A DNA stretch of 64,000 bases from a virus, in the IMG/VR virus record IMGVR_UViG_3300021389_001814, positions 4,467-68,466 of that record, one strand, 5' to 3'. Both the position numbers and the translations under genes were made by a program. The notes under the pieces are model-generated. The model ran no database searches. It was not told where the DNA came from and was given only the letters and a program-made list of their open reading frames with translations. This document shows positions 3,694 through 38,371 of the stretch, piece by piece (position 1 is the first letter of the stretch; each line of letters begins with the position of its first letter).

Positions 3694-4169
3694 TTAGTGC
3701 AAGCGGTTGTTTGTTTTTGGCAATAGATACTGGAAGAGTTTGTTTGCAACTTAGAAGCGACAATTCTACATATAGCGGAACTTGGAGTTTTTGGGGAGGC
3801 AAACAGGAACAAAATGAAACACCATTTGAAACTCTTCTACGAGAACTAACCGAAGAAATTGGAATTATTCCAGATGTTGAAAAAGTTTATCCACTACATA
3901 AGTATATAAGCAGAGACAAAAATTTTGAATACAATTCTTATGTTCTAACTGTGTATGAAGAATTTGTTCCACAGCTTAATGGCGAAAGTAGCGGCTATGC
4001 TTGGGTAGATATTGGCATCTACCCAAGACCACTACATCGCGGAGCAAAGACTGTTTTGCTTAACAAGAAAATGACAGAAAAAATAAAGACTATCTTAAAG
4101 AATCAAAAAGAAAACAACGAAGATATCAACTATCTAGAAAATTTTTCAAAACCTAAAAAGATAGCCTAA
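3690..4169 (+). CDS. NUDIX hydrolase
   Basis: Nudix box GGKQEQNETPFETLLRELTEEIG; start moved to the ATGA overlap at 3690. Confidence 0.9.
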   Translation: MISASGCLFLAIDTGRVCLQLRSDNSTYSGTWSFWGGKQEQNETPFETLLRELTEEIGIIPDVEKVYPLHKYISRDKNFEYNSYVLTVYEEFVPQLNGESSGYAWVDIGIYPRPLHRGAKTVLLNKKMTEKIKTILKNQKENNEDINYLENFSKPKKIA

Positions 4170-4685
4170 ACCATTTGAAAAGTATTCTCTGCAATATATT
4201 TTTTCTTTATTAAAGTCGTGGAGCGTTTCTTGTTCACTTTGACGATTAGGGTCTGTAAATGTTGGCGTTTCTTTCCAATCAAACCCGTAAACTGATACAT
4301 TTTTAGTTTCAAAATGCGAAAGCAAGTCTAACACCATCAACCCAGTTGTTGGTGTTTCTATTTTCGATTTTACTTTTAAGTTATGTAGATAAACTGGATC
4401 ATATACGGCGACGTGTGGAGCATCTACGGGAATCCAAGAAGCCATTTGTATTACAGTTTCGGGTTCTACTATATTCGCATTTTCATATTCACGATGTCTC
4501 CACATCGCCCATACATCAGTTCTTGAACCATGCGTTAGTTGTGAATCAAATCTTTCATACAGCATTGCCGCACGATTCATTCTGATTATTATATCGTGAT
4601 TATCTATTTCTCCACCGTATCTTCTATTGAAAAGATACTGTGCATTTCCTATTACCGCTATACTTTTATTCGTAAAATCTCTCAT
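4146..4685 (-). CDS. Glycosyltransferase family 29 (sialyltransferase-like)
   Basis: Sialylmotif L-like IAVIGNA...IDNHDIIIRMN...GSRTD, S-like PTTGL...VYGFD, VS-like HDFNKE. Confidence 0.75.
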   Translation of the reverse strand: MRDFTNKSIAVIGNAQYLFNRRYGGEIDNHDIIIRMNRAAMLYERFDSQLTHGSRTDVWAMWRHREYENANIVEPETVIQMASWIPVDAPHVAVYDPVYLHNLKVKSKIETPTTGLMVLDLLSHFETKNVSVYGFDWKETPTFTDPNRQSEQETLHDFNKEKIYCREYFSNGLGYLFRF

Positions 4686-5215
4686 TTAAATATAAACCAT
4701 GTTGGATATTCACTCCAAACACTGTTTGGTTCGTGGCAATCAATAAGATGCAAATCTCTATTCACTTTTGAAGAAAAATCATTTACACATTTTTTAACAA
4801 GAGGCCAATTATCATGATAATCATCTCCTGCCATTATTCCACTATTTTTTAATTTGGGATACCAATCACTAAATGTTTTTCCATTTTCTTCGCCAGTATG
4901 TGCATAGCCGTCTACATATATGAAATCGAAATAATTGTCTGGGAATAATTCTAGAGCATTTTGAAACTTTAATTTTATTATAGTATTTCTATCACGATAT
5001 GGCTCTAATCTTTTTATTACACGCTTATATTGGTCATCATCGTGTCCTCTGTCTCCTGCCCACATGTCTACGCTATAGTGATAATAGTTTTGTGTATTTC
5101 TCAAAACACGTTCGCTGAATTCACCTTCTGCAACTCCGAGTTCTATGCCAACCCCATTGGGATTGGCAAATTTCATTACGTCTTCACGCTTGTTTAAAAA
5201 ACTGTGTTTAATCAT
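4682..5215 (-). CDS. Class I SAM-dependent methyltransferase (Methyltransf_24-like)
   Basis: GIELGVAEG motif I, FDFIYVDGYAH, GIMAGDDY. Confidence 0.85.
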   Translation of the reverse strand: MIKHSFLNKREDVMKFANPNGVGIELGVAEGEFSERVLRNTQNYYHYSVDMWAGDRGHDDDQYKRVIKRLEPYRDRNTIIKLKFQNALELFPDNYFDFIYVDGYAHTGEENGKTFSDWYPKLKNSGIMAGDDYHDNWPLVKKCVNDFSSKVNRDLHLIDCHEPNSVWSEYPTWFIFK

Positions 5216-8200
5216 TTATTTTCCTAAAATGAAAATCACCATCTACATTTGTGTTTGAAAAGTTTGAAATTAATTCAAATCCGAACTTTTTCATATAATC
5301 TATTACTTTATCTTTATTTGGTGCGCCTATGTTATATTCAACATGTTGTAATTCTATAATAACATCTTTACAATTGGATAAGCACTTTGTTGCACCCTTT
5401 AAAATATCAAGCTCTGAACCTTGGACGTCTATTTTTATAAAATCAGGCAAAGGCCAATTTCTTTTTTCCACAACAGTATCAAGTGTTGATGTTTTCTTTT
5501 TCACAATTTTATCTTTACCAAAAAGAATATTTGCATCATTTGAATGTTTTGGGTTCTCTCGGTAATATGAGTTACCTCCAGGATGAATTTTATTTTCATA
5601 GAATTCTATAATTCTATCATCTTTATCAGAAAGAACACCAATGTTATAATTTGGAAATCCCTTTTCTTGATATATTTCTTCCACGTCATCCATTGCCTCA
5701 AACAAGAAAAAGTTAGAATTATTCCATTTTTCTTTTGCTACTGAACACCAATGAGTTACGCATGAGCCAATATCATAAATGACTTTTGGTTCTATCGACA
5801 TTTCATTAAGATAGTCAACATGTGTTTTTGGCAATAATCTTTTATTAGACAGTGCTTTTAGACTTTTTTTTTCGTCAGATATGGAACTTATTTCCGCATT
5901 AGGGTTTTGGTCAACTATGAATTTTGTATTCCCAATATGTTCACAATGTATACTGCTGTCTGCCCACAGTTTGAATCCATGCTTTCTTGCTTTGATAGCA
6001 AAATCAATATCTTCACTTATTGTGTCGCGATGATTTAGTGCAGAATGGTATTCAAAGTGCGGATAAGGTATAGTTCTAAATACTTCACTTTTGATAAGAA
6101 CACAACCAAACCCACATCCTGCTATCTCAACGATACCACGATTTTTAATTAATTCATATGGCATATTTGTGCATCCACCGTTTGGCGTATCCATATAAAC
6201 CTCTAGTGTATGTGTATTTGGAATTCGCTGAATATACAATCCACTAATTATATCTTTATCTGCTGCAATAAAGTTTCTTAGTGTATTTTTTGGAAGAACA
6301 ATGTCACTATCTACAGAGAATAAGTAATCGTAATGTTTCGCCCATTCTGCGATCAAGTTGCGAACCTGGTCTACGCGATACCCATAAAAGAATTGAAACT
6401 CAGTTTCATATCCTTCTGGAATATCCAAATCATAAAGAGATTTAAACGTTTCCGGTTCTATATATTTTGAAGTAGGTATTGCTATTAGTATTCGTTTTTT
6501 TCGTTGCATATGGGTTTCTTTTTTTATAGTTTGTTCTTTGATTACATTTTTTTCTGATTGCTTGCCTAAGTGCTCGGATAATTTAACTCCACTATTTTTG
6601 TTAAGTATCTTTGCTGCATTGCGACTTTGTTCATCGCCATTTATTTTATAGTCATTTATTGGATTTATATCATTATAAGCATAAACAATTTCTTTTAGCG
6701 CAATTATATTGTCTGGATTGGCCCGCTCAATCAAACTATAAAATACACTACCATCGCCACCAGCACGATACCATTCGCCATTTTCATCTTTGAATTCACT
6801 TTGGTCAATACTATTGATTAGAGATTTGCGGAAAGTTCTTAGGTGTGTGTATGGCATATTCCAGTTAAATTTGTGTTCGCGATAGGAACGATTTTGCTTT
6901 ACACTTTCTGGATAATCTTGTGCTACAAGCGGAATATTGTCTACTAGACTCCAACAGCTACCGTATGTGAACTCTGCTCCATAATTATAATAATCATTGT
7001 AAAGATGAAATAGTGTATTGTTGTTTACTAGCCAATCATCACCATCCAATAGCATAACAATGTCATCATCTTCGCCGTGAATATCAATCGCAGTTATTTG
7101 GTTATATACTGCTCCACGATTTGTAAGATTCTTTTGTAGAGAAAATTTAGAACGAACTTCTGGTGGCAAACTATCTATTGTCTGTCGGGCAACTTCAAAA
7201 CTATTATCAGTTGAACAATCATCAATCAAAACATGTACGTAATTATCATAATCTTGTTGTGCCACACTAAGAATACAATTGCTAATATATTTTTCACAGT
7301 TATAAAAAGGTGATACAATTAGTATCCCGCGCTGCTTTCCAAAACTAATATATTCACGATAGTTTGGCATATTGTTAACTCTGCCAAAGACACGATTTAC
7401 TTTTTGACTAATAATTTTAGCAACACGATAATCTTCTGCTGGTAAAAACTTTCCTAGCTTGTGGTGGAAAAATCTTTTCCATTCTATAGCAACACTATCC
7501 CATCCTGCAACATCGTGAACTACACTGCAATAATTTTGCTTTTGTTGTAGTAAGTAAGGATTATTATACGCATCAACAGTCAGTTGAACAAATTGTTTTA
7601 CTTGTCCTTCTTTGTTAATATATGGAAACAAATTGTTTGGTTCTATAGCAAAATCCATAGTATAACATGCGCCAGCAACAGCAGTTTCTTCAAGTGCGCC
7701 AAATTTTGTAGTTATCAGTGGCGTATTGTATAAAAGAGATTCTAGTGTAGATATTCCAAATGTTTCTGGAAATGCACCAGGATACAACATAAAAGTTGCG
7801 TTTGTAAGTATTTCAGCAATTTTTGGTTGAGGAATCACATCCGTAAAAGTAATGTCTAGTTCTTTTAGTCTATCATCTTCTACCAATTTTCTAAGTGTTT
7901 TTTCTTGTGCATCTGGTTCTGCACCTTCGCGAAAACGATAATATCCACCAATTACTGTAAGATGCGCCTGTGGTATTTGTTTTTTAACTTCTGGCCATAT
8001 GTGTTCTAATAGAGGAACCAAACCCTTTGTCACACTTGCATTATAAACAAAATGATTTCTATCTTTTTTGCTAAGGTCAACTTCATCTATATGTTTTACT
8101 GCGCCATTTCTTGTTTGAAATACTTTATGTTTAAGAACTTCATAGTTTCTTTTTTGACCGTGATCGCAGTTCAATACATAATCAGTATGAAAATCACTGA

Positions 8201-8606
8201 GTGTAAAAATATAATCTATTTCACCAGATAATGCCAAATTTTGAACATGTTGGTCTCCCTCACAAAAGGTATCGTGCAACCACAATGCTTTCATCTTTGC
8301 AGATTTCAAAAATGGATATCTATTTTTATTTAAAAATGGTTCTGCGGTTCTGCTAACAATAACTATATCATATTCTTCATTATGATTTGCTGCATTTGAA
8401 TTATCAATATATCTAACACCATTATAAGTTCCTTCACTAGAATGTGTGCTATCATTGCAATTGTTGAATACAGTTACGTTAAATCCTAATTGTTGTAATT
8501 CTTTTGACATAAGAATGACAGCACTTTCGCTGCCACCTAGTCCATTTTTTTCTAGCGTTGTGCCATCATAACACAATCCAATCTTATCACATATTGCTAT
8601 TTTCAT
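5208..8606 (-). CDS. Multidomain glycosyltransferase: GT4 + GT2 + GT2-like + FkbM methyltransferase
   Basis: GLGGSE and ETFGISTLES (GT-B); SPFYN...IDDCSTD...LDGDDWL (GT-A); LFSVDSDIV...GFGCVLIK...SEDIDF (second GT-A); YDIGS...IKIDVQGSELDILKG (FkbM). Confidence 0.9.
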   Translation of the reverse strand: MKIAICDKIGLCYDGTTLEKNGLGGSESAVILMSKELQQLGFNVTVFNNCNDSTHSSEGTYNGVRYIDNSNAANHNEEYDIVIVSRTAEPFLNKNRYPFLKSAKMKALWLHDTFCEGDQHVQNLALSGEIDYIFTLSDFHTDYVLNCDHGQKRNYEVLKHKVFQTRNGAVKHIDEVDLSKKDRNHFVYNASVTKGLVPLLEHIWPEVKKQIPQAHLTVIGGYYRFREGAEPDAQEKTLRKLVEDDRLKELDITFTDVIPQPKIAEILTNATFMLYPGAFPETFGISTLESLLYNTPLITTKFGALEETAVAGACYTMDFAIEPNNLFPYINKEGQVKQFVQLTVDAYNNPYLLQQKQNYCSVVHDVAGWDSVAIEWKRFFHHKLGKFLPAEDYRVAKIISQKVNRVFGRVNNMPNYREYISFGKQRGILIVSPFYNCEKYISNCILSVAQQDYDNYVHVLIDDCSTDNSFEVARQTIDSLPPEVRSKFSLQKNLTNRGAVYNQITAIDIHGEDDDIVMLLDGDDWLVNNNTLFHLYNDYYNYGAEFTYGSCWSLVDNIPLVAQDYPESVKQNRSYREHKFNWNMPYTHLRTFRKSLINSIDQSEFKDENGEWYRAGGDGSVFYSLIERANPDNIIALKEIVYAYNDINPINDYKINGDEQSRNAAKILNKNSGVKLSEHLGKQSEKNVIKEQTIKKETHMQRKKRILIAIPTSKYIEPETFKSLYDLDIPEGYETEFQFFYGYRVDQVRNLIAEWAKHYDYLFSVDSDIVLPKNTLRNFIAADKDIISGLYIQRIPNTHTLEVYMDTPNGGCTNMPYELIKNRGIVEIAGCGFGCVLIKSEVFRTIPYPHFEYHSALNHRDTISEDIDFAIKARKHGFKLWADSSIHCEHIGNTKFIVDQNPNAEISSISDEKKSLKALSNKRLLPKTHVDYLNEMSIEPKVIYDIGSCVTHWCSVAKEKWNNSNFFLFEAMDDVEEIYQEKGFPNYNIGVLSDKDDRIIEFYENKIHPGGNSYYRENPKHSNDANILFGKDKIVKKKTSTLDTVVEKRNWPLPDFIKIDVQGSELDILKGATKCLSNCKDVIIELQHVEYNIGAPNKDKVIDYMKKFGFELISNFSNTNVDGDFHFRKIND

Positions 8607-9178
8607 TATCTAAAACTCGGTCCTTCTACCCAACTTACTAACGATTTTCTGGTTCCACCTGTTACTGTAGTTACACGATGACTCAAAAATGATGGAAAAA
8701 CAAATACCGTTCCTTTTGTTCGTAATGCGTTTGGGTCTGGTTGCGGATACTGTGGGTCAAGTTCAAAGAACCCACCTTCGTAATCAGTCATACCATCGCT
8801 TAGTTGCATTATTACTGAAATTTTTCTATCATATGGATTATTTGCATCCCAGAAAGTATCACTGTGCCATTCGTATTTACCAGCTTCGCTTCCATGATAT
8901 TCCGTATATTGTATATCATTTACTGTATCTATATGGAAACCGAAAGCGTTACGATTTGCCATTTGTGCAAAATCATATATTAATTCTTTTATCCATCTGC
9001 TTTCTGGATTATTGCCATGAACCCAACGAACATTACTTTTCCTATAGCTGCTGTCTGGTCTGGTATTTTCTACGCCTAGCGCAGCTTCGTGAACTTGATA
9101 TTTTTCACATTCTTGTATAATAGCATTGACCGTATCATCACTTAGTTGATTCGGCCACATTTGCCACATTGCTTTCAT
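8606..9178 (-). CDS. 2OG-Fe(II) oxygenase (prolyl-4-hydroxylase/PKHD-like)
   Basis: HxD (WHSD), RKIS, GG, FPSFLSHRVTTVTGGTRKSLVSW. Confidence 0.9.
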   Translation of the reverse strand: MKAMWQMWPNQLSDDTVNAIIQECEKYQVHEAALGVENTRPDSSYRKSNVRWVHGNNPESRWIKELIYDFAQMANRNAFGFHIDTVNDIQYTEYHGSEAGKYEWHSDTFWDANNPYDRKISVIMQLSDGMTDYEGGFFELDPQYPQPDPNALRTKGTVFVFPSFLSHRVTTVTGGTRKSLVSWVEGPSFR

Positions 9179-9195: not shown

Positions 9196-9235
9196 TATTT
9201 ATTAATAGTATATATCATTTTTATGATTCTGTCAA
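9196..9235 (-). promoter_or_regulatory. Sigma70 promoter plus late-type promoter of the modification operon
   Basis: TTGACA (9235-9230)-17 nt-TATACT (9212-9207), followed by AATAAATA (9203-9196) and AGGAG RBS. Confidence 0.75.
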
Positions 9236-9242
9236 TATAAAA

Positions 9243-9539
9243 TTATATTTTTTTGTAAGTCATTATCCACGATTGAGTGGTTTCATCCCATTCGTAAATA
9301 TCCTCTTCGTCGGGGAGAGGTGTTGGCGAATCCCAATATTTGTTAGTTTCATTCCAAATCCAACTATCAAATGGTTTTGGTGGACGAAACCCTTCGGTTT
9401 CTGTGTGAGTGTATCCTACACTAACATCGTCATAATTATTATAAACAATCCAATGTCCATCCATATTGTTTACATAAGTGTCATCACAAACAATAGTATC
9501 AGTCACTATATTATTTTCTATTTTTGCCTCGTATCTCAT
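9243..9539 (-). CDS. Small fibre-associated/assembly protein
   Basis: FRPPKPFDSWIWNE...WDSPTPLP...YEWDETTQSW motif common downstream of Gly-rich phage fibre genes; ATGA overlap. Confidence 0.6.
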   Translation of the reverse strand: MRYEAKIENNIVTDTIVCDDTYVNNMDGHWIVYNNYDDVSVGYTHTETEGFRPPKPFDSWIWNETNKYWDSPTPLPDEEDIYEWDETTQSWIMTYKKI

Positions 9540-10288
9540 TTTTTATACCTTACGTAGACACCGCCACTGGCACCAGATAAAGAACCAGAAGCACGAGCAC
9601 CGCCGCTTCCAGAACCACTAATTCCGCCACCACTGCTTGCTCTACCTATTCCGGTTGCTCCCGTTCCGCCGCCAGCATAAGTATCATTTTGTCCTTTAAA
9701 ATTTACTAATAGCGGGGAACCTCCGGTTGGTTGTCCGCCATTGCTTCCTGCTCCCCCGCCGCCGCCGCCGCGACGTGAATTCCCATTAGAACTTCCTACG
9801 CCATTTCCTCCCCTATTTCCTTGTCCAGAAATACCAGAACCTCCAGTAAAAGCCAAAGATGTGGTGTAAGCAGCGCCGCCTCCGCCAGAACCTCCAGAGC
9901 TTCCAGAAGTCGTTGACCCGCCATTTCCTCCACCGCTTGATGTTAATCCATTAAATGAAGAAGAACCACCACTTCCGCCAACAGTTGTGTTATAAGTTCC
10001 AGAAGGCAATATTATGGGGTTTCCTATTGTATGCCGAACCCCGCCACCGCCGCCAGCGCCTGGAGCATATGTGTTACTTTGGCCAATGCTCCCTCCACGG
10101 CCTCCACCGCCTACGACCAAGTATTCCAAATCCGGATTATCTATATCGCCTTCTCGTATGATATTAATACTAGAAGAAGAAGAGAAACTGTGAACTTTGT
10201 ATATTACTCCATTTATATTATGTTCTGATATTGCTCCGCCCGTGGCAATATGCTTTGGTTTTGATGAAATAACACTACAAATTAACAT
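9536..10288 (-). CDS. Glycine-rich domain fibre tip/adhesin-like protein
   Basis: EYLVVGGGGRGG...GGGGGV...GGVYVRY Gly-rich domain; start reassigned to TAATG at 10288 (MLICSVISS). Confidence 0.7.
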   Translation of the reverse strand: MLICSVISSKPKHIATGGAISEHNINGVIYKVHSFSSSSSINIIREGDIDNPDLEYLVVGGGGRGGSIGQSNTYAPGAGGGGGVRHTIGNPIILPSGTYNTTVGGSGGSSSFNGLTSSGGGNGGSTTSGSSGGSGGGGAAYTTSLAFTGGSGISGQGNRGGNGVGSSNGNSRRGGGGGGAGSNGGQPTGGSPLLVNFKGQNDTYAGGGTGATGIGRASSGGGISGSGSGGARASGSLSGASGGVYVRYKK

Positions 10289-10755
10289 TATGCCAAATCT
10301 CCATATAGATACCATGTATTCGCGGCAAGCTTTGCAGCGGTTGCCATAGAATATTGAACCGCGAGTTGATTAGTTAATCCATTTCTTATCCTAACGGTCA
10401 CGCCCGCTTCGCTTCCTATCGTAACAGAGCCAGTTCCATCCCGTGTAAAGTGGACAACTGTTCCTATCGGAAAGTCCAAAGTTGTATCATTTGGAATAGT
10501 ATATGTGACTGTCGTAGAAGCAGTAGAAAACAGCATACTGTTTGAATCTGTTAGAATTAATGTTCTGCTGACGGATACTGGTATTATTCCACCAATCGGA
10601 GAACCATTGAGTCCATCTTGTCCTGCTGTCCCTATGCTGCCAGTGTATCCTAGACTCCCAAAAGAACCAGTATATCCGATTGCACCCTGAGAACCAGAAT
10701 AACCAGTATCTCCGATAAAATCGCTTCCTAATAAACTACTTAAACTTACTGCCAT
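10288..10755 (-). CDS. Short collagen-like fibre adaptor
   Basis: GYSGSQG/GYTGS triplets followed by a C-terminal domain ending WYLYGDLA. Confidence 0.7.
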   Translation of the reverse strand: MAVSLSSLLGSDFIGDTGYSGSQGAIGYTGSFGSLGYTGSIGTAGQDGLNGSPIGGIIPVSVSRTLILTDSNSMLFSTASTTVTYTIPNDTTLDFPIGTVVHFTRDGTGSVTIGSEAGVTVRIRNGLTNQLAVQYSMATAAKLAANTWYLYGDLA

Positions 10756-16602: not shown

Positions 16603-17982
16603 TTATCCAAAAAGAATACTCATTGCAACACTGAACCCACGATTCCCACTAGCCGCACTTCCAGTATAACCAACTGAACCTACGTTTGTTATGACTTGCC
16701 ATATTGAACCATCATATACAAATTCAGCTTTACTTTGTCCTATATCTAAAAGCAAATCGTCATTTATTATGTCTTCAATTTGATTTCCGTTTCTTCCAAC
16801 CGTGAGTGGATTTGTGGACCAATCACCGCCATCTGCAATCATGACAAAATCTCCCACACTAGGAGATGGTGGAAGATTTATAGTAAAAGAACCACCAGTA
16901 GTGTCTGCAATTATACCATCTTTATTCTGCGAAGTTATTCCGTCATCGGTTACTGTGTATACTTTCCAATTATATACCTGACCAATGCTTCCGTTATAAC
17001 CACGACTTCCTGCATATCCGGATATTCCAAGACTTCCGGTATATCCACGAATGCCTTGCGGTCCGGTTGCACCCAACCAAGTTCCGTCATAATAAACATT
17101 CAAACTTGCATCATTTGAATTGAACCACAAATATCCGTTTGTTAAGTTTGGGTTAATTGGTGCGGTATCTGTTACTTGTGCACTAAATCCACGGCTACCA
17201 CTATATCCGGTGCTTCCGGTATAACCTATTCCTTTACTTCCTGTATATCCTAGTTCGCCTTTTGGTCCAATTGGTCCACTGACAACTACCCATTGACTTG
17301 TATCACCATCATCATAATATACTTTTAATGTTCCGTCTTCGGTGTCAAACCACATTTGACCATTAACTGGAGTAAGTGGTGGTGAATTTAGTGTTTCAGT
17401 TACGGTTCCGTCATCGCCACGACTTCCGGTAAATCCCAAGTCTCCTTGCGATCCACGGCTTCCAGTATAACCAAATTCTCCACGACTACCAAGATACCCA
17501 CGAGAACCAGCGTATCCAACATTTCCCTGAATGCCTTGCGAACCTATAAAACCTGTGTCACCTCTGCTGCCAGTGAAACCTATGCTTCCGGTGTATCCTA
17601 GTGTTCCTCGTGAACCTATAAAACCAGTAATACCACGACTGCCCGTGTATCCTGCCCCAGTGCTTCCAGTATATCCTAGTATTCCTTGTGAACCTATAAA
17701 CCCAGTAATACCACGGCTACCAGTGTACCCTGCACCTGCTGGACCTTGTAATCCACGACTGCCAGTATATCCTAAAACACCTTGACTGCCAGTATACCCA
17801 TCCCCTGTTCCAAAAGATATACTACCAAGAAATCCTAATCCTACAAAATTTCCATCACTGTCTATAACAAGTTTTGAATTAACTTTGAGACTATTAATAT
17901 CTAATGATGGTGAAGATATTTTTAAATCTTCACCATCATTTGTTTCAATTTCGTTAGTAGGATGTTTTATATTAATTGCCAT
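16603..17982 (-). CDS. Collagen-like fibre protein
   Basis: GYTGS triplets, two WFxxxD...YYDG knob domains, one IADTTGGSFTINLP...YDGSIWQV domain, ends VAMSILFG. Confidence 0.8.
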   Translation of the reverse strand: MAINIKHPTNEIETNDGEDLKISSPSLDINSLKVNSKLVIDSDGNFVGLGFLGSISFGTGDGYTGSQGVLGYTGSRGLQGPAGAGYTGSRGITGFIGSQGILGYTGSTGAGYTGSRGITGFIGSRGTLGYTGSIGFTGSRGDTGFIGSQGIQGNVGYAGSRGYLGSRGEFGYTGSRGSQGDLGFTGSRGDDGTVTETLNSPPLTPVNGQMWFDTEDGTLKVYYDDGDTSQWVVVSGPIGPKGELGYTGSKGIGYTGSTGYSGSRGFSAQVTDTAPINPNLTNGYLWFNSNDASLNVYYDGTWLGATGPQGIRGYTGSLGISGYAGSRGYNGSIGQVYNWKVYTVTDDGITSQNKDGIIADTTGGSFTINLPPSPSVGDFVMIADGGDWSTNPLTVGRNGNQIEDIINDDLLLDIGQSKAEFVYDGSIWQVITNVGSVGYTGSAASGNRGFSVAMSILFG

Positions 17983-19203: not shown

Positions 19204-19754
19204 TACGATCCATCTCCCACTAAAGCGCCATAAACTGTGCCATTAACTTTCCATAATGCTATAACTGTATAATTTCCACTATCTGGCCATGCTGGCGCAG
19301 AACCACCATTATTAACCCATTCTACAGTTGTCCAAGTTGTTACGCTTCCACTACCGCTATTATCATTAATCATTAGTGTAACAACTTCTCCATCAACAAA
19401 ATTTGTTACATCAATAGTTCTACTTGCTCCCAATGCGGTCAGATACTGTATACTTCCATTTGCTGGTTCAATAGTAATAGTGGCAGCATCAGTTAGTGCG
19501 AAAGTTTGTTCTTGTATTGATCCCGTAAATATCGCTTCACTTGAATTAAAAGAACCAGTGCTACCAGTGTATCCCAACGTTCCTTGCGATCCAGTATATC
19601 CTGCGCCAGTGCTACCAGTGTATCCCAACGTTCCTTGCGATCCTTGCGATCCAGTATATCCTGCGCCAGTGCTACCAGTGTATCCCAAATTGCCTTGGGA
19701 ACCAGTATATCCAGTATATGTTTGGTTCAAAAAGTCATTTAAATTTATTGTCAT
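19203..19754 (-). CDS. Short collagen-like fibre adaptor
   Basis: GYTGS repeats plus a C-terminal domain (NGSIQ...WKVNGTVYGALVGD) paralogous to 20825. Confidence 0.75.
   Translation of the reverse strand: MTINLNDFLNQTYTGYTGSQGNLGYTGSTGAGYTGSQGSQGTLGYTGSTGAGYTGSQGTLGYTGSTGSFNSSEAIFTGSIQEQTFALTDAATITIEPANGSIQYLTALGASRTIDVTNFVDGEVVTLMINDNSGSGSVTTWTTVEWVNNGGSAPAWPDSGNYTVIALWKVNGTVYGALVGDGS
19555..19688. repeat. Tandem 51/60-bp repeat in collagen coding region
   Basis: Unit starting ccagtgctaccagtgtatcccaa at 19555, 19606 and 19666; the second interval has a 9-bp duplication. Confidence 0.85.
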
Positions 19755-24598: not shown

Positions 24599-26173
24599 TT
24601 AACCTCCAAAAACAATTGTCATTGCAATGGCTTTACCAGTAACATCGGCAGTCGGTCCTTGGCTTCCGGTGTATCCAACATCTCCCTTTTCACCAATGTT
24701 GCTTATAACTTGCCAAGTTGTTCCATCATATATAAATTCAGTTCTATTACTTCCGATATCAAGTATTATGTCGTCACTAACACCTTCAATAGTAGAACCA
24801 TTTCTTAAAATTGTTAATGGATTAATTGACCAATTGCTTGCATCTGCAAACACAACTGTATTTCCTTGTAAGGGCGATGCTGGCAAACTTATACTAAAAC
24901 TTGCACTGCTTGTATCTGCTAATATTGCTTCTAAGTTACTTGCAACATACAAATCGTTTGTGTTGTCTAAATAGACCCAATCGTGGAATTTCCCAGTAGA
25001 ACCTACAAACCCGGTAATCCCGCGACTTCCAGTATACCCTATGTTTCCTTGACTACCACTATATCCACGTAATCCTCTTGGTCCGGTAGCACCTACCCAA
25101 GTTTCATCATAATAAACATTCAAACTCGCATCTGTTGAATTAAACCATAAATACCCATTTGAAATATCAGGAGTTGACGGTGCCGTGTCAGTTACTTGTG
25201 CACTAAATCCGCGACTACCACTATATCCGACACTTCCGCTATATCCTTGACTTCCAGCGAAACCAATTTCACCTTGTGGACCAATTGGTCCACTAACAAC
25301 TACCCATTGCGTCGTGTCGCCATCGTCGTAATATACTTTCAGAGACCCATCTTCAGTGTCAAACCACATTTGACCATTAACTGGATTACTAGGCGGGGAG
25401 CTAAGTGTTTCAGTTAATATACCAGTTATACCCTTACTTCCACTGAATCCGCGACTTCCGATATATCCAATACTTCCGGCATAACCTTGGCTACCTTGGA
25501 AACCTTGCGAACCATTAAACCCCTGACTTCCAGTCCATCCTTGTGAACCAGTATATCCTATTATACCTTGACTTCCGGTATATCCCTGACTACCTTGGAA
25601 ACCTTGCGAACCATTAAACCCCTGACTTCCAGTCCATCCTTGTGAACCAGTATATCCTATTATACCTTGACTTCCGGTATATCCCTGACTACCTTGGAAA
25701 CCTTGACTTCCGGTCCATCCTTGTGAACCAGTGTATCCTTGACTTCCTGCCCATCCTTGTGAACCAGTATATCCTATTATACCCTGACTTCCGGTGTATC
25801 CCTGCGAACCCGTATATCCGCGAGAACCAGTATAAGCACGACTGCCAGTATATCCAATTATTCCCTGAGAACCAGTATATCCCTGCGACCCATTAAACCC
25901 CTGACTTCCGGTGTATCCCTGCGAACCAGTATATGCACGAGAACCAGTATACCCCAATATACCCTGACTTCCAATGAAACCAGTTATACCCTGACTTCCG
26001 CTGAACCCACGAATACCACCATAGGGCAAACTGGCCCAATCAGTAACACCATCGCCTATTTTAAATTGTCTAGTATCAGTTTCTAATGCTATTTCGCCAA
26101 CGGCTAAAACTGGATTTGCATCATTCCATTCAAATTGGGTTCCGCGTCTAAATTGAAATTGAATAAACGCCAT
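24599..26173 (-). CDS. Collagen-like fibre protein with Mtd_N-like N-terminus
   Basis: QFRRGT..EW...NPVLAVGE...ETDT..FKIGDG...W..LPY; long GxTGSQ repeat; ends KAIAMTIVFGG; start reassigned to TAATG at 26173. Confidence 0.85.
   Translation of the reverse strand: MAFIQFQFRRGTQFEWNDANPVLAVGEIALETDTRQFKIGDGVTDWASLPYGGIRGFSGSQGITGFIGSQGILGYTGSRAYTGSQGYTGSQGFNGSQGYTGSQGIIGYTGSRAYTGSRGYTGSQGYTGSQGIIGYTGSQGWAGSQGYTGSQGWTGSQGFQGSQGYTGSQGIIGYTGSQGWTGSQGFNGSQGFQGSQGYTGSQGIIGYTGSQGWTGSQGFNGSQGFQGSQGYAGSIGYIGSRGFSGSKGITGILTETLSSPPSNPVNGQMWFDTEDGSLKVYYDDGDTTQWVVVSGPIGPQGEIGFAGSQGYSGSVGYSGSRGFSAQVTDTAPSTPDISNGYLWFNSTDASLNVYYDETWVGATGPRGLRGYSGSQGNIGYTGSRGITGFVGSTGKFHDWVYLDNTNDLYVASNLEAILADTSSASFSISLPASPLQGNTVVFADASNWSINPLTILRNGSTIEGVSDDIILDIGSNRTEFIYDGTTWQVISNIGEKGDVGYTGSQGPTADVTGKAIAMTIVFGG
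25491..25705. repeat. Perfect 99-bp tandem duplication (11 collagen triplets)
   Basis: Unit starting ctaccttggaaaccttg at 25491, 25590 and (partial) 25689. Confidence 0.9.
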
Positions 26174-26466
26174 TAAGAAACACCTCCGCAATTAATATTA
26201 AATCCTACAGAAAAATCTGTATAAGGTGTTCCTGCATCATAAATTATTGGACTTGGCGCACCCACACTTCCGGTATAACCACGGCTTCCGGTATATCCAA
26301 ATCCACCTGTTCCGCCGCCACCAGTGGATACCAGTTCCCAGTTTCCATCACCAGTTCCAATTAATAATTGTTTTGTTTCAGTGTCATAATATAATCTATC
26401 TTTGTCAATTTTTAAATTGTCAAGTAATAAATTTTTGTTTGTAGACCAGATTTTTAAAACAGGCAT
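26173..26466 (-). CDS. Small collagen-like linker protein
   Basis: YYDTETKQLLIG..GNW knob, GYTGS x2, ends INCGGVS; TAATG coupling to next gene. Confidence 0.7.
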   Translation of the reverse strand: MPVLKIWSTNKNLLLDNLKIDKDRLYYDTETKQLLIGTGDGNWELVSTGGGGTGGFGYTGSRGYTGSVGAPSPIIYDAGTPYTDFSVGFNINCGGVS

Positions 26467-33803: not shown

Positions 33804-35489
33804 TTATCCTAAGTCGCCAGTTAATACCCATTCATTCTCGTCAATTTTTGTAACACGAATAACACTGTATTGACCAGATGTTCTTGGAGTTGTTCCACTT
33901 TTTCTATAAATGGTAACGCCGCTTGCGCCGCTCACTGTAATAGTTGCGCTGTTAAATTGCATTATATGAAATGTTGTTCCAACTGAAAATTGAGTATTTG
34001 TATAATTTGGGATGGTCACAGTTGTTGGATTAATAGTATTGAAAGCAAAAATCTTACCGTTATCGCCCACTTGTGGTGTTAATGACGTTGCATTGGTTTT
34101 TTCACTTTGCGTGATATAATTCCCAGGAACACCTTGCGGACCCTGTTTTCCACTGACAACTACCCATTGACTTGTATCACCATCATTATAATAAACACTT
34201 AATGTTGCATCATCTGGGTCAAACCACAATTTTCCTACAATTTCTTCTGGTGTAGTTGTAATATCTGTCAGTGTTCCTGTGAGACCGCGAGAACCAGTAA
34301 ATCCGGTATCACCGTCGTTTCCAGTAGAACCAGTAAATCCGATAGAACCGGACTCTCCGACCGGACCCTGCGGTCCACTCGTTACAACCCACTGCGGACT
34401 ACCATCTCCATCATCATAATATACGCTCAATGTTCCATCAGTAGTATCAAACCACATATGTCCTGTGAGAACAGATTTTGATTCTGTTGGGTCTGTTTCG
34501 CCAACGTCTGCGCGAAAACCTTGAGAACCACTATATCCTAAGCTTCCATTAAATCCACGAATACCGCTAGAACCAACAAACCCTACATCACCTTTGTTTG
34601 CAACTTGCTGCCAAGTTGACCCATCATAGAAAAATTCTATTCTACTATTTGAAACATTTGCATTATACGTTTGCGATGCTCCTTCTATGAGTTCGCCAGT
34701 ACCAGCGTCTATAGTTAAAGGATTGAGTCCCCAATTTGCACCATCCATAAATGTAACAACATCGCCAAATTCTGGCGGATTAGGAAGATTTACAGTAAAA
34801 GAACCACCGCTAGTATTTGCAATTATTGCTTGTAAGTCATTTGAATTATATCCACCATTTGCTACTGTTAGGTAAATCCAATCAGCGAATCCACCTTTTG
34901 CACCTGTATCTCCTTTTTTGCCAATGTTTGTTAATATTTGCCAGGTGTCTCCGTCATAAATAAATTCTACTCTAATTCCAGTAATGTTTAAAGTAAAATT
35001 ATCTGCAAGTCCTTCTATTGTTTCTAATGAAATTAGATTTCTAGACACAGTTAATGGATTTAATTCCCAATCAGCACCATCTGTTATTTCTACAATTGAA
35101 CCAACTGTTGGCGATTGTGGAAGATATAACGTAAATGATCCACCGCTGGTGTCTGCAATAATTGCTTCTAAATTTTCCATTTGATAGTCTGAAGTTTTTA
35201 AACTCCAGTTCATAGCACCACGAGAACCAGTGTATCCTATTATTCCCTGACTTCCAGTATATCCTTGTGAACCATTAAAACCTCGACTTCCAGTATATCC
35301 CTGACTACCAGTCCATCCTTGGCTACCCGTAAATCCTTGGCTACCTGTAAATCCTTGAATTCCTTGACTGCCTGTATATCCACGTGATCCAGTATATGCA
35401 CGAGAACCAGTATAGCCAATTATACCCTGTGAGCCTGTGAAGCCAACAAAACTAGTTCCCAAAAAATCACTAACATTAATAGTTGCCAT
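33804..35489 (-). CDS. Collagen-like fibre protein
   Basis: GxTGSQ repeats, two IA(D/N)TSGGSF domains, two WFD knob domains, ends WVLTGDLG. Confidence 0.8.
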   Translation of the reverse strand: MATINVSDFLGTSFVGFTGSQGIIGYTGSRAYTGSRGYTGSQGIQGFTGSQGFTGSQGWTGSQGYTGSRGFNGSQGYTGSQGIIGYTGSRGAMNWSLKTSDYQMENLEAIIADTSGGSFTLYLPQSPTVGSIVEITDGADWELNPLTVSRNLISLETIEGLADNFTLNITGIRVEFIYDGDTWQILTNIGKKGDTGAKGGFADWIYLTVANGGYNSNDLQAIIANTSGGSFTVNLPNPPEFGDVVTFMDGANWGLNPLTIDAGTGELIEGASQTYNANVSNSRIEFFYDGSTWQQVANKGDVGFVGSSGIRGFNGSLGYSGSQGFRADVGETDPTESKSVLTGHMWFDTTDGTLSVYYDDGDGSPQWVVTSGPQGPVGESGSIGFTGSTGNDGDTGFTGSRGLTGTLTDITTTPEEIVGKLWFDPDDATLSVYYNDGDTSQWVVVSGKQGPQGVPGNYITQSEKTNATSLTPQVGDNGKIFAFNTINPTTVTIPNYTNTQFSVGTTFHIMQFNSATITVSGASGVTIYRKSGTTPRTSGQYSVIRVTKIDENEWVLTGDLG

Positions 35490-35519: not shown

Positions 35520-36248
35520 TCATTCTATAATTATCCAAAATGCTATCTGTATTGTTGGGTCACTTCCGCTAACACCATACACCGTATTAATAGGATCATT
35601 ATTTGGGCCATTCCAAATTTTATACTGACTTGCGACATAATCAAAATTACTATGATCAACAACCTGATCCGAACTTGGATTTGAAGTTGCAGCAAATGTT
35701 GTACTATTTGTATAAAAATAATGAAAAGAAATAGCACCCTGATCTGGATTAATAGTTGGTGAATTTATAGATATATTAGTATTAGTTGAGTTCGAAAAAT
35801 CATAATTTCCATAAAAAACGTCCGTTATAGTATTTCCGTCCAAGTTCCTAAAAATATATAGCTGATCATAATCATTTACAGTCGGAGAACTAATAAAACT
35901 TATATTAGTTCCTCGATCTGAAATTTCAAATTTTTTAAATGATGCAGCAATTCTATAGGCACTAAAAGAATAATCACCGACCAATGTCCACCCAGGCTGT
36001 GTTCCAAAAACAACATTTACGGCTGACATTTCTAGCAATATTCCAAAATGTGTATCATCTACATAATTTGGTATAGCCCCGCCTGTGTCATTTGTAAAAC
36101 TTATGATCTCAACGAGTTCAATTTGAATGGGTGGTGCGAATCCATAAACAAGTTCGCTACCATAATAAACCCTATCTGCTAGTGAATTTCCTACATATAA
36201 ATCATCTGGATATGTGTTTCCAAATCTAAATTTTGTAACTTCTGCCAT
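35520..36248 (-). CDS. Putative fibre tip protein
   Basis: N-terminal LYVGNSLADRVYYGSELVY motif; directly follows the collagen gene. Confidence 0.55.
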   Translation of the reverse strand: MAEVTKFRFGNTYPDDLYVGNSLADRVYYGSELVYGFAPPIQIELVEIISFTNDTGGAIPNYVDDTHFGILLEMSAVNVVFGTQPGWTLVGDYSFSAYRIAASFKKFEISDRGTNISFISSPTVNDYDQLYIFRNLDGNTITDVFYGNYDFSNSTNTNISINSPTINPDQGAISFHYFYTNSTTFAATSNPSSDQVVDHSNFDYVASQYKIWNGPNNDPINTVYGVSGSDPTIQIAFWIIIE

Positions 36249-36253
36249 TCACT

Positions 36254-38371
36254 TTATCCCGATACTATATATAATATATTTGCCGATGGGGTCAACGCAT
36301 CGTATTCTGTTTGTGTAACAATTCTTATATCACTAATATCAGTAGTAAGTTGTCCTTTACTTCCAGTATATCCAGATTCGCCCTTTTCACCAATGTTCGA
36401 AACTAGTTGCCATGTTGTACCGTCATAAACGAAGTCATTTCTAGATTCACCAATATCAAAAACGAAATCTAATTCTAATCCTTCAATGGTTTCCAGTGAT
36501 ACTGGATTTCTTGCAACAGTTAGAGGATTATCGCTCCAATTTGCACCATCAATGAAAAGAACAGCATCACCGTCGTTTGGTGTTTCTGGCAAATAAACAG
36601 TAAAAGAACCTCCGCTTGTATTTGCAATAATACCTTCAATGTTATTAGTAACATAACCATCGTCCGTTACATCCAAGTATGACCAATTTGCAAATCCACC
36701 ATCATTGCCTCTTGATCCAGTATATCCTATACTTCCCGTGTATCCGTCTACACCGTCTACACCATCAGAACCTGCAACACCTTGACTACCAACGAACCCA
36801 ACGCTTCCCGTGTATCCTATACTTCCGGTGTATCCTATACTTCCCACAAATCCAGTATCACCTTGAATACCTTGGGAACCTATAAAACCTGTGTCGCCTT
36901 TACTACCAGTGTAACCTATGCTACCAGTATACCCATCACGTCCAATTATACCATCTAGCCCACGGGAACCAGTGTACCCCAGTTCGCCTCGCGAACCCGT
37001 GTATCCTTCACCGCTTGAACCAGTATATCCCAATTCGCCCTGAATACCTTGGCTACCAGAAAATCCCGTATCTCCGCGACTACCAGTATAACCTTGGCTA
37101 CCTGTAAATCCTAAATCACCGCTTGAACCAGTATAACCTACGCTACCTATAAATCCATCAACACCGTCTGTTCCAGAAGACCCTCGTGAACCAGTGTATC
37201 CTATACTTCCTGTATATCCTATACTTCCTGTGAAACCAACAGCGCCGAAATCACCAGAATCACCCTTTTCGCCTCGTGAACCAGTATAGCCGATACTTCC
37301 TGAAAATCCGGTTTCACCCTGAATTCCTTGTACGCCCTGAGAACCAGCAAATCCGGTATCGCCTTTGCTACCAGTATAACCTACGCTACCAGTATATCCT
37401 ATAGAACCAGCTTCACCCGACAAACCTTGGCTACCAGTGAAACCTATGCTTCCTGTGTATCCTAGTTCACCCTGAATACCACGACTACCAGCAAATCCAA
37501 CGGTTCCTCTTGAACCAGTATAGCCAACACTACCAGCAAATCCTGTTTCGCCTTGGATACCATGGCTACCTGTAAAACCAATACTACCAGTATAACCAAC
37601 ACTACCAGTATATCCCAATGTTCCCCTAGAACCTACAAATCCAGAAATACCTTGGCTACCAGTATATCCGATAGAGCCAGTGTATCCCAATTCACCTTGC
37701 AGACCCTGAGTACCAGTACTACCAGCATATCCGGCTTCACCTTTGCTACCAGTATAACCAACACTGCCAGTATATCCTATTTCACCCTGAGTTCCTTGAC
37801 TGCCAACAAATCCAACAATACCTTGTGATCCGGTGTATCCAATGCTGCCAGTATATCCTAGTTGACCTTGATCACCTTGAATACCACGACTACCACTATA
37901 TCCAGTTGCACCTTGGCTACCAGAGTAGCCGACACTGCCAGTATATCCCTGACTTCCGGTATAGCCTATAAATCTACCAGCATCTTGCCATTGTGTTCCA
38001 TTCCAAATATAAATGTGTTCATCGGATGCAACAATATAGGCATCGCCAATTGTATTTCCAGTAGCTGGCAAATCCCCAACAGTTGGCAATACATCTAAAA
38101 CAAACAATCCTTTGCCTTGTGAACCAGTATATCCGATAGAACCAGTGAATCCTAAATCGCCGCGCGAACCAGCAAATCCTCGTGAACCCGTATATCCAGT
38201 TGCATCAATCCAATACCTGCTTCCATCCAAATCGCCAGCAAGTATTTTTCCATCACCAGATGGTAAACCTAAATCCGGTTCTGCATTGTCGAGACTAAGA
38301 AACTCATAGCGTTCTGGATCAGCTTCTGCACTCGGCGTTTTTCTTATTCTATCAGATAATAGCTTTGACAT
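36254..38371 (-). CDS. Long collagen-like fibre protein
   Basis: About 420 aa of near-continuous G-x-x (GYTGS) repeat; ends VTQTEYDALTPSANILYIVSG. Confidence 0.85.
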   Translation of the reverse strand: MSKLLSDRIRKTPSAEADPERYEFLSLDNAEPDLGLPSGDGKILAGDLDGSRYWIDATGYTGSRGFAGSRGDLGFTGSIGYTGSQGKGLFVLDVLPTVGDLPATGNTIGDAYIVASDEHIYIWNGTQWQDAGRFIGYTGSQGYTGSVGYSGSQGATGYSGSRGIQGDQGQLGYTGSIGYTGSQGIVGFVGSQGTQGEIGYTGSVGYTGSKGEAGYAGSTGTQGLQGELGYTGSIGYTGSQGISGFVGSRGTLGYTGSVGYTGSIGFTGSHGIQGETGFAGSVGYTGSRGTVGFAGSRGIQGELGYTGSIGFTGSQGLSGEAGSIGYTGSVGYTGSKGDTGFAGSQGVQGIQGETGFSGSIGYTGSRGEKGDSGDFGAVGFTGSIGYTGSIGYTGSRGSSGTDGVDGFIGSVGYTGSSGDLGFTGSQGYTGSRGDTGFSGSQGIQGELGYTGSSGEGYTGSRGELGYTGSRGLDGIIGRDGYTGSIGYTGSKGDTGFIGSQGIQGDTGFVGSIGYTGSIGYTGSVGFVGSQGVAGSDGVDGVDGYTGSIGYTGSRGNDGGFANWSYLDVTDDGYVTNNIEGIIANTSGGSFTVYLPETPNDGDAVLFIDGANWSDNPLTVARNPVSLETIEGLELDFVFDIGESRNDFVYDGTTWQLVSNIGEKGESGYTGSKGQLTTDISDIRIVTQTEYDALTPSANILYIVSG

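Follow-up and report, generated by a model that had tools for sequence, protein, structure and literature searches.

What do the sugar-modifying enzymes encoded at the end of a phage structural module act on, and could their substrate be the collagen-like fibre proteins encoded in that same module? The question is raised by a 64-kb stretch of DNA (the window) taken from a single 68,466-base contig of an uncultured marine phage, IMG/VR record IMGVR_UViG_3300021389_001814. Eight open reading frames (ORFs) of the window carry Gly-X-Y tracts built on the hexad G-(Y/F/W)-T-G-S-x, here called GYTGS collagen, and an operon on the same strand codes for a 2-oxoglutarate (2OG)-Fe(II) oxygenase, a large glycosyltransferase (GT) fusion, a methyltransferase and a GT29-like enzyme. 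Comparing related loci, we found that the fusion goes with collagen of the GYTGS type and that the other three enzymes come and go. That the fusion glycosylates the GYTGS fibres, adding sugar to Thr and/or Ser in the hexad, is a reading of the genes to which we give about even credence. A first-pass annotation of this DNA had proposed a glyco-collagen coat made by four dedicated enzymes; its link between fusion and GYTGS collagen stands and its dedicated four-enzyme set does not.

Eight fibre genes with a proline-poor, aromatic collagen repeat

All eight repeat-bearing genes named in the first-pass annotation are present on the minus strand at the low coordinates listed here, with the repeat in each. 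Scores refer to the Pfam Collagen family (PF01391, curated cut-off 27.2 bits) and lengths are in amino acids (aa).

36254..38371, minus strand: collagen-like fibre protein, 705 aa (E 7.9e-68; also matches tail-fibre PHROGs)
33804..35489, minus strand: collagen-like fibre protein, 561 aa (E 8.1e-20)
26173..26466, minus strand: short ORF, 97 aa, with one GFGYTGSRGYTGSVG tract (left out of the Pfam scan)
24599..26191, minus strand: collagen-like fibre protein, 530 aa (E 7.9e-41)
20825..21730, minus strand: collagen-like fibre protein, 301 aa (30.9 bits)
19203..19754, minus strand: collagen-like fibre protein, 183 aa (24.9 bits, under cut-off)
16603..17982, minus strand: collagen-like fibre protein, 459 aa (E 3.8e-24)
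10288..10755, minus strand: short collagen-like protein, 155 aa (25.7 bits, under cut-off)

Five of the seven ORFs scanned exceeded the cut-off (30.9 to 224.6 bits) and two fell just below it, and the longest uninterrupted Gly-X-Y run reached at least six triplets in seven of the eight ORFs (6 to 107), the 97-aa ORF having one short tract. The largest collagen, of 705 aa, holds 156 triplets, no Pro and 36 strict GYTGS motifs and ends in a Phage_tail_C tip (E 4.2e-6). The 561-aa protein spreads 54 triplets over several tracts with globular domains between them, and the 530-aa protein, whose likely ATG is overlapped by the stop of the 97-aa ORF, joins 92 triplets to an N-terminal Mtd_N domain (E 4.5e-16). 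There are 64 triplets in the 459-aa protein, 19 in the 301-aa protein, whose gene has the T4 late-promoter motif TATAAATA 28 nucleotides (nt) upstream, 17 in the 183-aa protein, followed by a C-terminal globular domain, and 13 in the 155-aa protein, which carries a C-terminal knob. The last of these has a counterpart of 64% identity in G001, the closest large relative (317.7 kb), just 5' of the enzyme genes. Similar short hydrophobic C-terminal tails follow the last GYTGS tract in the products of 16603-17982 (...AMSILFG) and 24599-26191 (...AMTIVFGG).

Pooling the eight ORFs and counting runs of at least four triplets, we obtained 422 Gly-X-Y triplets. The X position is occupied by Ser in 149 (35.3%), Tyr in 84, Phe in 45 and Trp in 5, which brings aromatic residues to 134 (31.8%), and the Y position by Thr in 113 (26.8%), Gln in 81 (19.2%) and Ile and Arg in 42 each. 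Pro, rightly described as very scarce in the first-pass annotation, accounts for 12 X and 3 Y residues, i.e. 15 of 844 X and Y positions (1.8%). Nine of these 15 lie in seven sites at tract starts, right after a globular domain, and three of the seven sites read GPxGPxG. The strict motif G[YFW]TGS occurs 91 times and the looser G[YFW][TASIVNQ]GS 137 times, TGS is the most frequent Yaa-Gly-Xaa triplet (85), and aromatic residues alternate with Ser in X between neighbouring triplets in 195 of 393 pairs, giving the hexad. Bacterial collagen-like proteins have, according to a passage of PMC8968730, Pro at 19% of X and Thr at 31.6% of Y positions; by this comparison the Thr content of the phage collagens is ordinary, and what sets them apart is their lack of Pro and their aromatic residues in X.

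The 73 copies of G[YF]TGS in four of the genes comprise 30, 10, 13 and 8 distinct 15-mers (counted per gene), use both families of Ser codons (AGY 48, TCN 25) and share a third-position identity of 0.41, and Tandem Repeats Finder returned solely short or imperfect arrays. Given the diverse 15-mers, the two Ser codon families and the divergence at silent sites, we concluded that the repeat is old and is not a product of recent DNA duplication. The exposed Tyr, Thr and Ser of the hexad have evidently been kept by selection, as judged from the coding sequence. X and Y side chains of a triple helix face solvent, and selection on them therefore indicates a surface function.

Modelled as three copies, the 183-aa fibre scored 0.91 as against 0.00 for the best of three controls, with an interface made of residues 15-69 (the whole Gly-X-Y tract) and the C-terminal domain, agreement between runs in at least 90% of contacts and a pLDDT of at least 76. 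Of 30 solved pairs, 21 reached the mark used, and of 23 single chains none did. Since it was calibrated on two copies and collagen helices are abundant among solved structures, the pass may reflect memory of solved collagens.

A soluble enzyme operon at the end of the structural module

The operon (4146-9178, minus strand) consists of four genes whose neighbours overlap by 1, 8 and 4 bases; two further genes precede it on the same strand.

9536..10315, minus strand: Gly_rich_2 domain protein, 259 aa (PF21722, E 1.1e-7)
9243..9539, minus strand: Trp-rich ORF, 98 aa (no Pfam family matched)
8606..9178, minus strand: 2OG-Fe(II) oxygenase of the prolyl-hydroxylase/PKHD type, 190 aa (2OG-FeII_Oxy_3, E 1e-13)
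5208..8606, minus strand: glycosyltransferase fusion GT4-GT2-GT-A/Anp1-like-FkbM, 1132 aa (Pfam, PHROG)
4682..5215, minus strand: class I S-adenosylmethionine-dependent methyltransferase (Methyltransf_24), 177 aa (Pfam)
4146..4685, minus strand: miniature GT29-like enzyme of sialyltransferase fold, 179 aa (Glyco_transf_29, 56.5 bits, cut-off 23)

Pfam matches bear out the identities that the first-pass annotation had given to all four enzymes. Its placement of the operon is right as to strand and as to the end of the structural module, and wrong in setting it immediately downstream of the last collagen gene, for the Gly_rich_2 gene, the 98-aa ORF and a 64-base spacer lie between them. Homologues of the 98-aa ORF are found just 5' of the sugar genes in G001, L001 and L003. 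None of the operon enzymes has a hydrophobic 19-mer above 1.55 or a membrane segment, and we regard them as soluble.

The fusion contains Glycos_transf_1 (GT4) at residues 187-313, Glycos_transf_2 (GT2) at 430-596 and FkbM at 966-1112, with Pfam scores of 38.5, 56.8 and 56.8 bits, all above the cut-offs. These three domains had been named correctly before; the third in order (about 696-896), taken previously for a second GT2, is not a canonical Pfam GT2 but a virus-specific GT-A/Anp1-like domain (phrog_1574, E 3e-24), in agreement with its Atlas neighbours. DxD motifs are present in GT2 (DGD, 521-523) and in the GT-A/Anp1-like domain (DSD, 766-768). Among isolate phages, megablast gave no match to the operon, and tblastn with the fusion gave partial domain matches alone, in 98 records, none covering 80% of it.

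The oxygenase retains the HxD...H iron triad (H105, D107, H167) and the 2OG-binding Arg (R177), which are invariant in seven aligned sequences. Its best profile matches are PKHD-type hydroxylases (E 3.5e-7), followed by prolyl 4-hydroxylases. The model (pLDDT 81) is closest to the Pseudomonas putida prolyl 4-hydroxylase (TM 0.73), with further matches to the Dictyostelium Skp1 prolyl hydroxylase PhyA (6t8m, TM 0.67), a PKHD-type hydroxylase and PHD2. With the triad, the 2OG-binding Arg and, in the model, the double-stranded beta-helix fold, the protein has the features of a prolyl 4-hydroxylase-like enzyme. A PLOD-type lysyl hydroxylase working with GT25/LH3-type transferases was considered and rejected, as the oxygenase matches prolyl and PKHD hydroxylases and Pfam found no GT25 among the window enzymes. 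Lys does prefer the Y position (12 in Y vs 5 in X in seven window collagens, 47 vs 0 in six related collagens). Lysyl hydroxylation was set aside all the same, most Lys residues lying in KGE/KGD triplets, which a passage of PMC11923368 explains as salt bridges, and the oxygenase not being PLOD-like.

A profile search of the PDB with the GT29-like protein matched animal GT29 enzymes alone (best E 7.3e-8), and its model (pLDDT 87) has a sialyltransferase-like fold. In the Foldseek ranking to 50 (past rank 10, further chains of an entry already listed are omitted), all chains listed down to rank 24 are animal GT29 enzymes, mostly at TMq 0.61-0.71; the rank-24 chain has TMq 0.28, and bacterial sialyltransferases (Pasteurella multocida, CstII) appear from rank 25. 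In an alignment of 15 sequences G13, N14, G24, E26, I27, D28, R35, Y133, G134, F135, H156 and E161 are invariant and T114, at the PTTG position, nearly so. HMMER aligned motif L and motif S of the protein to ST3Gal-I, and we take the conserved positions to be sialyl motifs L, S and VS. Relatives of this 179-aa family occur in 31 viral-contig loci; tblastn found the protein in 0 of 50,697 isolate phage records. No CMP-sugar synthetase (PF02348) was detected in the four records searched, one of which, G000, is 19% complete.

The glycosyltransferase fusion accompanies GYTGS collagen

The first-pass annotation had called for testing whether GYTGS repeats and this enzyme set occur together across phage genomes; for the GT fusion they do, in a scan whose query was the collagen tract of the 705-aa protein alone. 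The scan returned 39 loci, eight with collagen of the GYTGS type (37 to 127 motifs) and 31 with other types. The fusion was present in the records of seven of the eight GYTGS loci (49-62% identity), five times within the locus and twice elsewhere in the record, and in none of the 31 others; the GYTGS locus lacking it is a 25%-complete fragment. Counted as distinct phages, with L096/L097 and L110/L111 merged as one phage each on their near-identical maps, five of six GYTGS phages carry the fusion.

Approached from the enzymes, the scan gave 15 GT-fusion loci, 12 of them distinct and nine both distinct and at least 10 kb long. In five of these nine (L005, L006, L009, L012 and L015) a collagen ORF carries 28 to 186 GYTGS-like motifs, and in L011 one carries three. 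The control consisted of 47 loci reached by way of distant relatives of GT29 or of the methyltransferase; these yielded no GYTGS ORF and one collagen-like ORF. Fisher tests give p ~1e-6, uncorrected for shared ancestry, and since the loci are related this is an upper bound on the real support.

The two genes are found together in three arrangements. They are divergent neighbours 26 to 110 nt apart in L009, L096/L097, L110/L111 and G002, L012 differing in having two small ORFs between them; they share a strand in L005/L006, L100 and G004; and in the window, G001, L001 and L026-L028 the fusion stands at the end of the module, beside genes for a NUDIX hydrolase and gp15. A tree of the GT4-GT2 region (18 rows) splits into two deep, well-supported clades, and the GYTGS linkage occurs in both. 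The complete 160,495-base genome G002 has its fusion (54% identical to that of the window over 900 residues) 82 nt from a divergent gene for a 1681-aa collagen, as measured after closing a 99-base terminal repeat. G006 has neither fusion nor GYTGS collagen, and the two genomes are equally distant from the window in the major head protein (37% for G002 vs 38% for G006) and the portal (31% vs 34%). This single contrast agrees with fusion and collagen having been transferred, or retained, together.

Other glycosyltransferases adjoin other collagens. In L102 and L125, whose collagens are of other types, a stand-alone GT4 gene lies directly 3' of the collagen gene. In cyanophage S-CAM7 (L078, NC_031927.1, 162097-173626) a GT25 gene lies directly 5' of a collagen tail-fibre gene of the G-A/S-T type with 138 triplets, and further upstream are GT11, a GT8-like gene, two nucleotide-sugar epimerases, an aminotransferase and an adenylylsulfate (APS) kinase. 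Animal collagen galactosyltransferases presumably belong to GT25 as well. A 544-aa ORF with a TonB-dependent-receptor Plug domain (E 3.8e-18) was seen two genes from the fusion in L110 (2323-3957) and L111 (2302-3933).

A variable cassette of oxygenase, methyltransferases and GT29

Composition of the operon varies among relatives, so that the fusion is to be seen as the core and the other genes as a variable cassette, and not as the single invariant set first supposed. G001, 73-79% identical to the window across shared genes, holds the short collagen gene, the Gly_rich_2 gene, the 98-aa ORF, the 2OG gene and an 870-aa fusion without FkbM; its whole 317.7 kb yielded no homologue of GT29 or of the separate methyltransferase. 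In L026-L028, L055 and L056 the methyltransferase and GT29 accompany a fusion split in two, and the 2OG gene is lacking; counterparts of the methyltransferase are 79% identical in L025-L028 and L055 and 78% in L056. Methyltransferase domains accompany the fusion in many relatives, some of which swap FkbM for Methyltransf_24 or Methyltransf_11. In L001 (635-3530) genes for GT9 (heptosyltransferase family), a sulfotransferase and a cytidylyltransferase/mannose-6-P-isomerase-C/cupin protein stand 5' of the fusion, and a sulfated, heptose-type glycan is possible there, to go by these families.

Homologues of the oxygenase were found in eight loci, six of them distinct, and in four of the six, two or three collagen genes of the G-P-T/G-P-Q type come directly after the oxygenase gene, their starts overlapping. 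This adjacency ties the oxygenase to collagen generally and to Pro in X, and not to the hexad. Every collagen-bearing 2OG locus has Pro in X. Collagen loci poor in Pro (0-7 residues) lack the 2OG gene (L009, L012, L015, L095, L100, L110), as do, within 10 kb, the Pro-rich L096, L097, L005 and L125, and the tracking of 2OG presence by Pro content is suggestive only. In L018-L023 (e.g. L020, 3870-7261) the oxygenase is 39-44% identical to that of the window and the downstream collagens have a common N-terminus, MAIKIRLPYNT.... L017 (589-10558) has a 48%-identical homologue beside a second 2OG oxygenase (2OG-FeII_Oxy_5) and ORFs matching radical SAM enzymes, two above the Pfam cut-off and two below, with no collagen gene nearby.

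Gene order and transcription

The contig is rated 19% complete by CheckV, and the full genome is therefore probably that of a jumbo phage. The landmarks of the window outside the fibre and enzyme genes are as follows.

61272-62981, minus strand: portal, at the start of the long minus-strand block
57145-58311, minus strand: major head protein, 3' of the portal in that block
9207..9235, minus strand: promoter-like site of the sigma-70 type, TTGACA-17-TATACT, in the 64-base spacer 5' of the operon
2341-3693, plus strand: T4 gp15-like tail-sheath stabiliser
Beside the gp15-like gene, plus strand: NUDIX hydrolase gene

The minus-strand block runs from the portal through the major head protein, large virion structural proteins and fibre genes to the enzyme operon, and converges with the plus-strand gp15-like and NUDIX genes. 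The closest isolate relatives of gp15 are those of jumbo phages such as Atu_ph07 and PA5oct (34-36% identity), and two seawater metagenome runs contain the stretch (0.94 share of sampled words). Three very large structural proteins share phrog_1645 (10768-16317, 1849 aa; 47524-50895, 1123 aa; 50897-54751, 1284 aa). The gene directly 5' of the sugar operon in L027/L055 codes for a homologue of the 1849-aa protein, and none turned up in G001. Scattered among the fibre genes are three small paralogues (17991-18440, 149 aa; 21761-22186, 141 aa; 26771-27244, 157 aa) with the common C-terminal motif ...YRQALRD...WP.KP, which are Trp-rich like the 98-aa ORF and may serve as chaperones in fibre assembly.

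On the minus strand of the window TATAAATA is found 12 times, on the plus strand twice. Six genes of the minus strand have, among them, seven of the copies 6 to 100 nt 5' of their starts, and a plus-strand copy stands 27 nt 5' of 41973; the spacing to the start codon is typically 25-33 nt. The genes so preceded are mostly head, portal and structural genes and include the collagen genes 16603-17982 and 20825-21730. From this placement before start codons the phage seems to use T4-type late promoters.

Sites of the sigma-70 type scoring 11/12 number four in the window, with 3.4 expected, so the count alone is not significant; the site at 9207..9235 is the sole one of the four in an intergenic spacer directly 5' of a gene. 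Comparable sites precede the first sugar gene, whichever gene that is, in three relatives: TTGACA-17-TATTAT 5' of the 2OG gene in G001, TTGACA-16-TATACT 5' of the fusion and downstream of a hairpin and T-run in L027, and TTGACA-17-TATAAT 5' of the GT9 gene in L001. Six other upstream regions inspected were without one. On account of its position and its conservation in the three relatives we count the site as meaningful.

Proposed glycosylation of the fibres and competing explanations

Our proposal as to which residues are modified, with which sugars, in what order and to what end is as follows. The eight ORFs would be trimeric collagen-like virion fibre proteins, and the soluble, cytoplasmic enzymes of the operon would tailor them before or during assembly. 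Using host nucleotide sugars, the GT4-GT2-GT-A fusion would start and extend an O-linked oligosaccharide on Thr/Ser of the hexad, the FkbM domain and the separate methyltransferase would methylate this glycan in the present phage, and the mini GT29 would complete it with a terminal nonulosonic or ulosonic acid, taken in CMP-activated form from the host. The 2OG oxygenase, a separable accessory, probably hydroxylates the few Pro, those of the GPxGPxG stretches at tract starts. The benefit could be stabilisation of the helix in place of hydroxyproline, shielding from proteases or grazers, or adhesion. Precedents that lend the proposal support are SgtA acting on BclA3, the suggestion that Thr-rich collagens are stabilised by glycosylated Thr, and the collagen modification encoded by mimivirus (PMC7157674, PMC11923368, PMC9546862). 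A bolder form of this proposal appears to us possible but doubtful: the hexad would be a glycosylation sequon recurring hundreds of times in phage fibres, fusion and collagen a co-evolved module swapped between unrelated backbones, the methylated and sometimes sialic-acid-like-capped glycan a coat on the triple helix and a replacement for hydroxyproline in a nearly Pro-free collagen, and the GT29 the first of its family known from a bacterial virus.

Several observations weigh against glycosylation of the GYTGS fibres, and most of them feed one of the alternatives. The operon may instead remodel a surface glycan of the host, i.e. the lipopolysaccharide (LPS) O-chain, the capsule or an S-layer glycan, so as to block superinfection or re-adsorption of progeny, and would then lie beside the fibre genes merely since both belong to a hypervariable host-recognition region. 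We consider this unlikely, though it is the chief contender. Its case begins with transcription: no TATAAATA motif was found within 100 nt 5' of the operon in the window search, and an early-class promoter of the sigma-70 type is conserved in four phages. With such a site and no late motif, the operon is not simply co-transcribed with the fibres; to judge from the upstream DNA it is most likely a unit of its own, read by host-type sigma-70, which fits either an early supply of enzymes or a host-directed role. The GT domains of the fusion match solely generic polysaccharide enzymes (TuaG, WcaA and EpsE), far under the NCBIfam curated cut-offs (GT2 against WcaA, 31 bits, cut-off 382), and the Pfam scan of the window enzymes revealed no tetratricopeptide repeat (TPR) or other known protein-recognition domain. 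GT4 and GT2 combined with a methyltransferase and a transferase of the ulosonic-acid type resemble, we presume, the machinery of capped polysaccharide synthesis, and the accessory enzymes vary in the manner of O-antigen loci, as seen in the sulfotransferase, GT9 and cytidylyltransferase/cupin protein of L001 and in the differing methyltransferases. GT29 relatives (31-46% identity, 167-193 aa, two or three paralogues per locus in most, on contigs of up to 218 kb) occur in 26 other loci (L029-L054) without a collagen ORF within 10 kb; they sit in sugar islands, such as L035 (1386-12889), where the paralogues lie among a GDP-mannose 4,6-dehydratase, a DegT aminotransferase, GT8 and a cytidylyltransferase-like protein. 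A passage of PMC7029224 assigns a host-directed role to the glycosyltransferases of pelagimyophage tail-fibre regions. Set against all this, the enzymes have no membrane segment, no initiating phosphoglycosyl transferase was found in the four records searched, the fusion tracks one collagen type (7/8 vs 0/31) and not fibre regions at large, and the collagen gene itself is often its divergent neighbour. A scan of 185,579 prokaryote genomes, which reaches close relatives only, returned four generic GT2 matches and no full-length relative of the fusion. We favour fibre glycosylation over remodelling of the host surface on the grounds that the linkage is specific, that the enzymes are soluble and that none of the four records yielded an initiating transferase.

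The acceptor could also be another virion protein, given the co-occurrence of the Gly_rich_2 genes: the window, G001, L003 and L006/L008 all have one directly 5' of their sugar genes. Globular fibre domains or head proteins are further candidates. The operon ends a portal/head/fibre module, and glycosylation of capsid and tail tube has a precedent in mycobacteriophages (PMC12619734, as described in a citing passage). We think this rather improbable, for the search with the collagen tract alone still recovered the fusion, and selection acts on the exposed Tyr, Thr and Ser in the hexad. Nor do we put much weight on linkage without function, in which fusion and GYTGS collagen would both mark one lineage or a mobile fibre cassette and the hexad would be kept for carbohydrate binding through its Tyr/Ser/Thr/Gln surface or for lateral packing of helices. 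Sugar-binding sites are typically aromatic and hydroxyl surfaces. All GYTGS phages may share ancestry, a single ancestor being possible for every fusion-bearing locus, and the counts therefore overstate independence; G001 keeps the 2OG gene and the fusion, yet has 57 GYTGS-type triplets in three ORFs over its whole 317.7 kb (422 in the window). No GYTGS ORF was found in the available flanks of the fusion loci L001, L003, L010 and L026-L028/L055, flanks that are short, the largest collagen of the window being itself 28 kb off. What speaks for a functional link is that adjacency persists over three arrangements and two deep clades and that G002 and G006 differ at equal backbone distance. Hypermodification of phage DNA, with the oxygenase hydroxylating a base to which the glycosyltransferases add sugars, would account for the 2OG oxygenase, and phage glycosyltransferases acting on DNA are mentioned in a passage of PMC12619734. 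The oxygenase resembles protein prolyl and PKHD hydroxylases by profile and fold, not TET/JBP, it is absent from most fusion loci, and the genes lie in a virion module, so this explanation strikes us as very improbable.

Significance

Literature searches by title and abstract returned nothing on glycosylated phage collagen fibres, the GYTGS repeat or phage GT29 enzymes, and one on what PiuC does found no paper. New here are the specific link of fusion to hexad and the mini GT29, of which we found no published account. Among phages, collagen-like proteins rich in Thr and poor in Pro are widespread, with matches to the present one in 1505 of 50,697 isolate records, and how they fold without hydroxyproline is a wider question. 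A survey of viral collagens, in the passages concerned, finds Thr triplets anomalously frequent, proposes Thr glycosylation as a stabiliser and leaves undecided whether sugars are added to unfolded or folded chains (PMC11923368). The present locus offers a concrete pair of enzyme and substrate, a soluble fusion and a short fibre of 183 aa. If glycosylation of the fibres is confirmed, glycosylation of phage virions would extend from actinobacteriophage capsids to the fibres of marine phages, part of the glycosyltransferase load of tail-fibre regions now ascribed to modification of host LPS would be explained, and a route would open to stable, proline-free collagen materials made in bacteria. 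The 179-aa GT29-like family is of glycobiological interest whatever the acceptor.

Comparison with known systems

A close likeness is to SgtA of Clostridioides difficile, which is encoded immediately 5' of bclA3 and adds O-GlcNAc to Thr of collagen-repeat peptides, as reported in a passage of PMC7157674; for BclA of Bacillus, glycosylation is thought to help hydrate the helix, according to a passage of PMC8968730. Here as there, a GT gene adjoins a gene for a collagen-like protein with Thr in Y (26.8% of Y in the window). SgtA, however, is a single GT-A domain with TPR repeats, whereas the phage enzyme is a GT4-GT2-GT-A(-FkbM) fusion without TPR, and the phage collagen differs from BclA3 in its aromatic X residues and near absence of Pro. 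As Pfam detects no TPR and the match to WcaA is weak, we liken the phage pair to SgtA/BclA3 and do not class it as a member.

Mimivirus also combines collagen-like proteins with their own hydroxylase and glycosyltransferase (L230, R699; PMC9546862, PMC12279948, PMC8968730). Both L230/R699 and the animal enzymes LH3/COLGALT1 have hydroxylysine targets, whereas the phage oxygenase is of the prolyl-hydroxylase/PKHD type and dispensable in most relatives, and Lys of the phage collagens lies mostly in KGE/KGD salt-bridge triplets. Mycobacteriophages are alike in that phage glycosyltransferases decorate virion proteins made in the cytoplasm, and unlike in that the targets described in the passage concerned are C-termini of capsid and tail-tube subunits, not collagen tracts (PMC12619734). 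In the cuticle collagen of Riftia, and in (Gly-Pro-Thr)10, galactosylated Thr in Y replaces hydroxyproline as stabiliser (Mann 1996 and Bann 2000, as cited in a passage of PMC11923368). That collagen passes through an animal secretory pathway, and its enzyme genes do not lie beside the collagen gene.

In Dictyostelium, Skp1 is modified on a single Pro by the cytoplasmic prolyl hydroxylase PhyA and then by soluble, multi-domain GT fusions. The model of the phage oxygenase resembles PhyA (6t8m, TM 0.67), but most phage relatives are without the hydroxylase. A fusion of two GT domains and a methyltransferase, A064R, builds the N-linked capsid glycan of chlorovirus PBCV-1, a eukaryotic virus; it gave no sequence match to the phage fusion in a PDB search at E 0.01. 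The marine T4-like pelagimyophages and cyanomyophages, too, have GT genes interspersed with genes for collagen-repeat fibres. In the passages of PMC7029224 concerned, modification of the host O-chain is proposed and no particular collagen type is linked to these enzymes, whereas the fusion described here goes with one.

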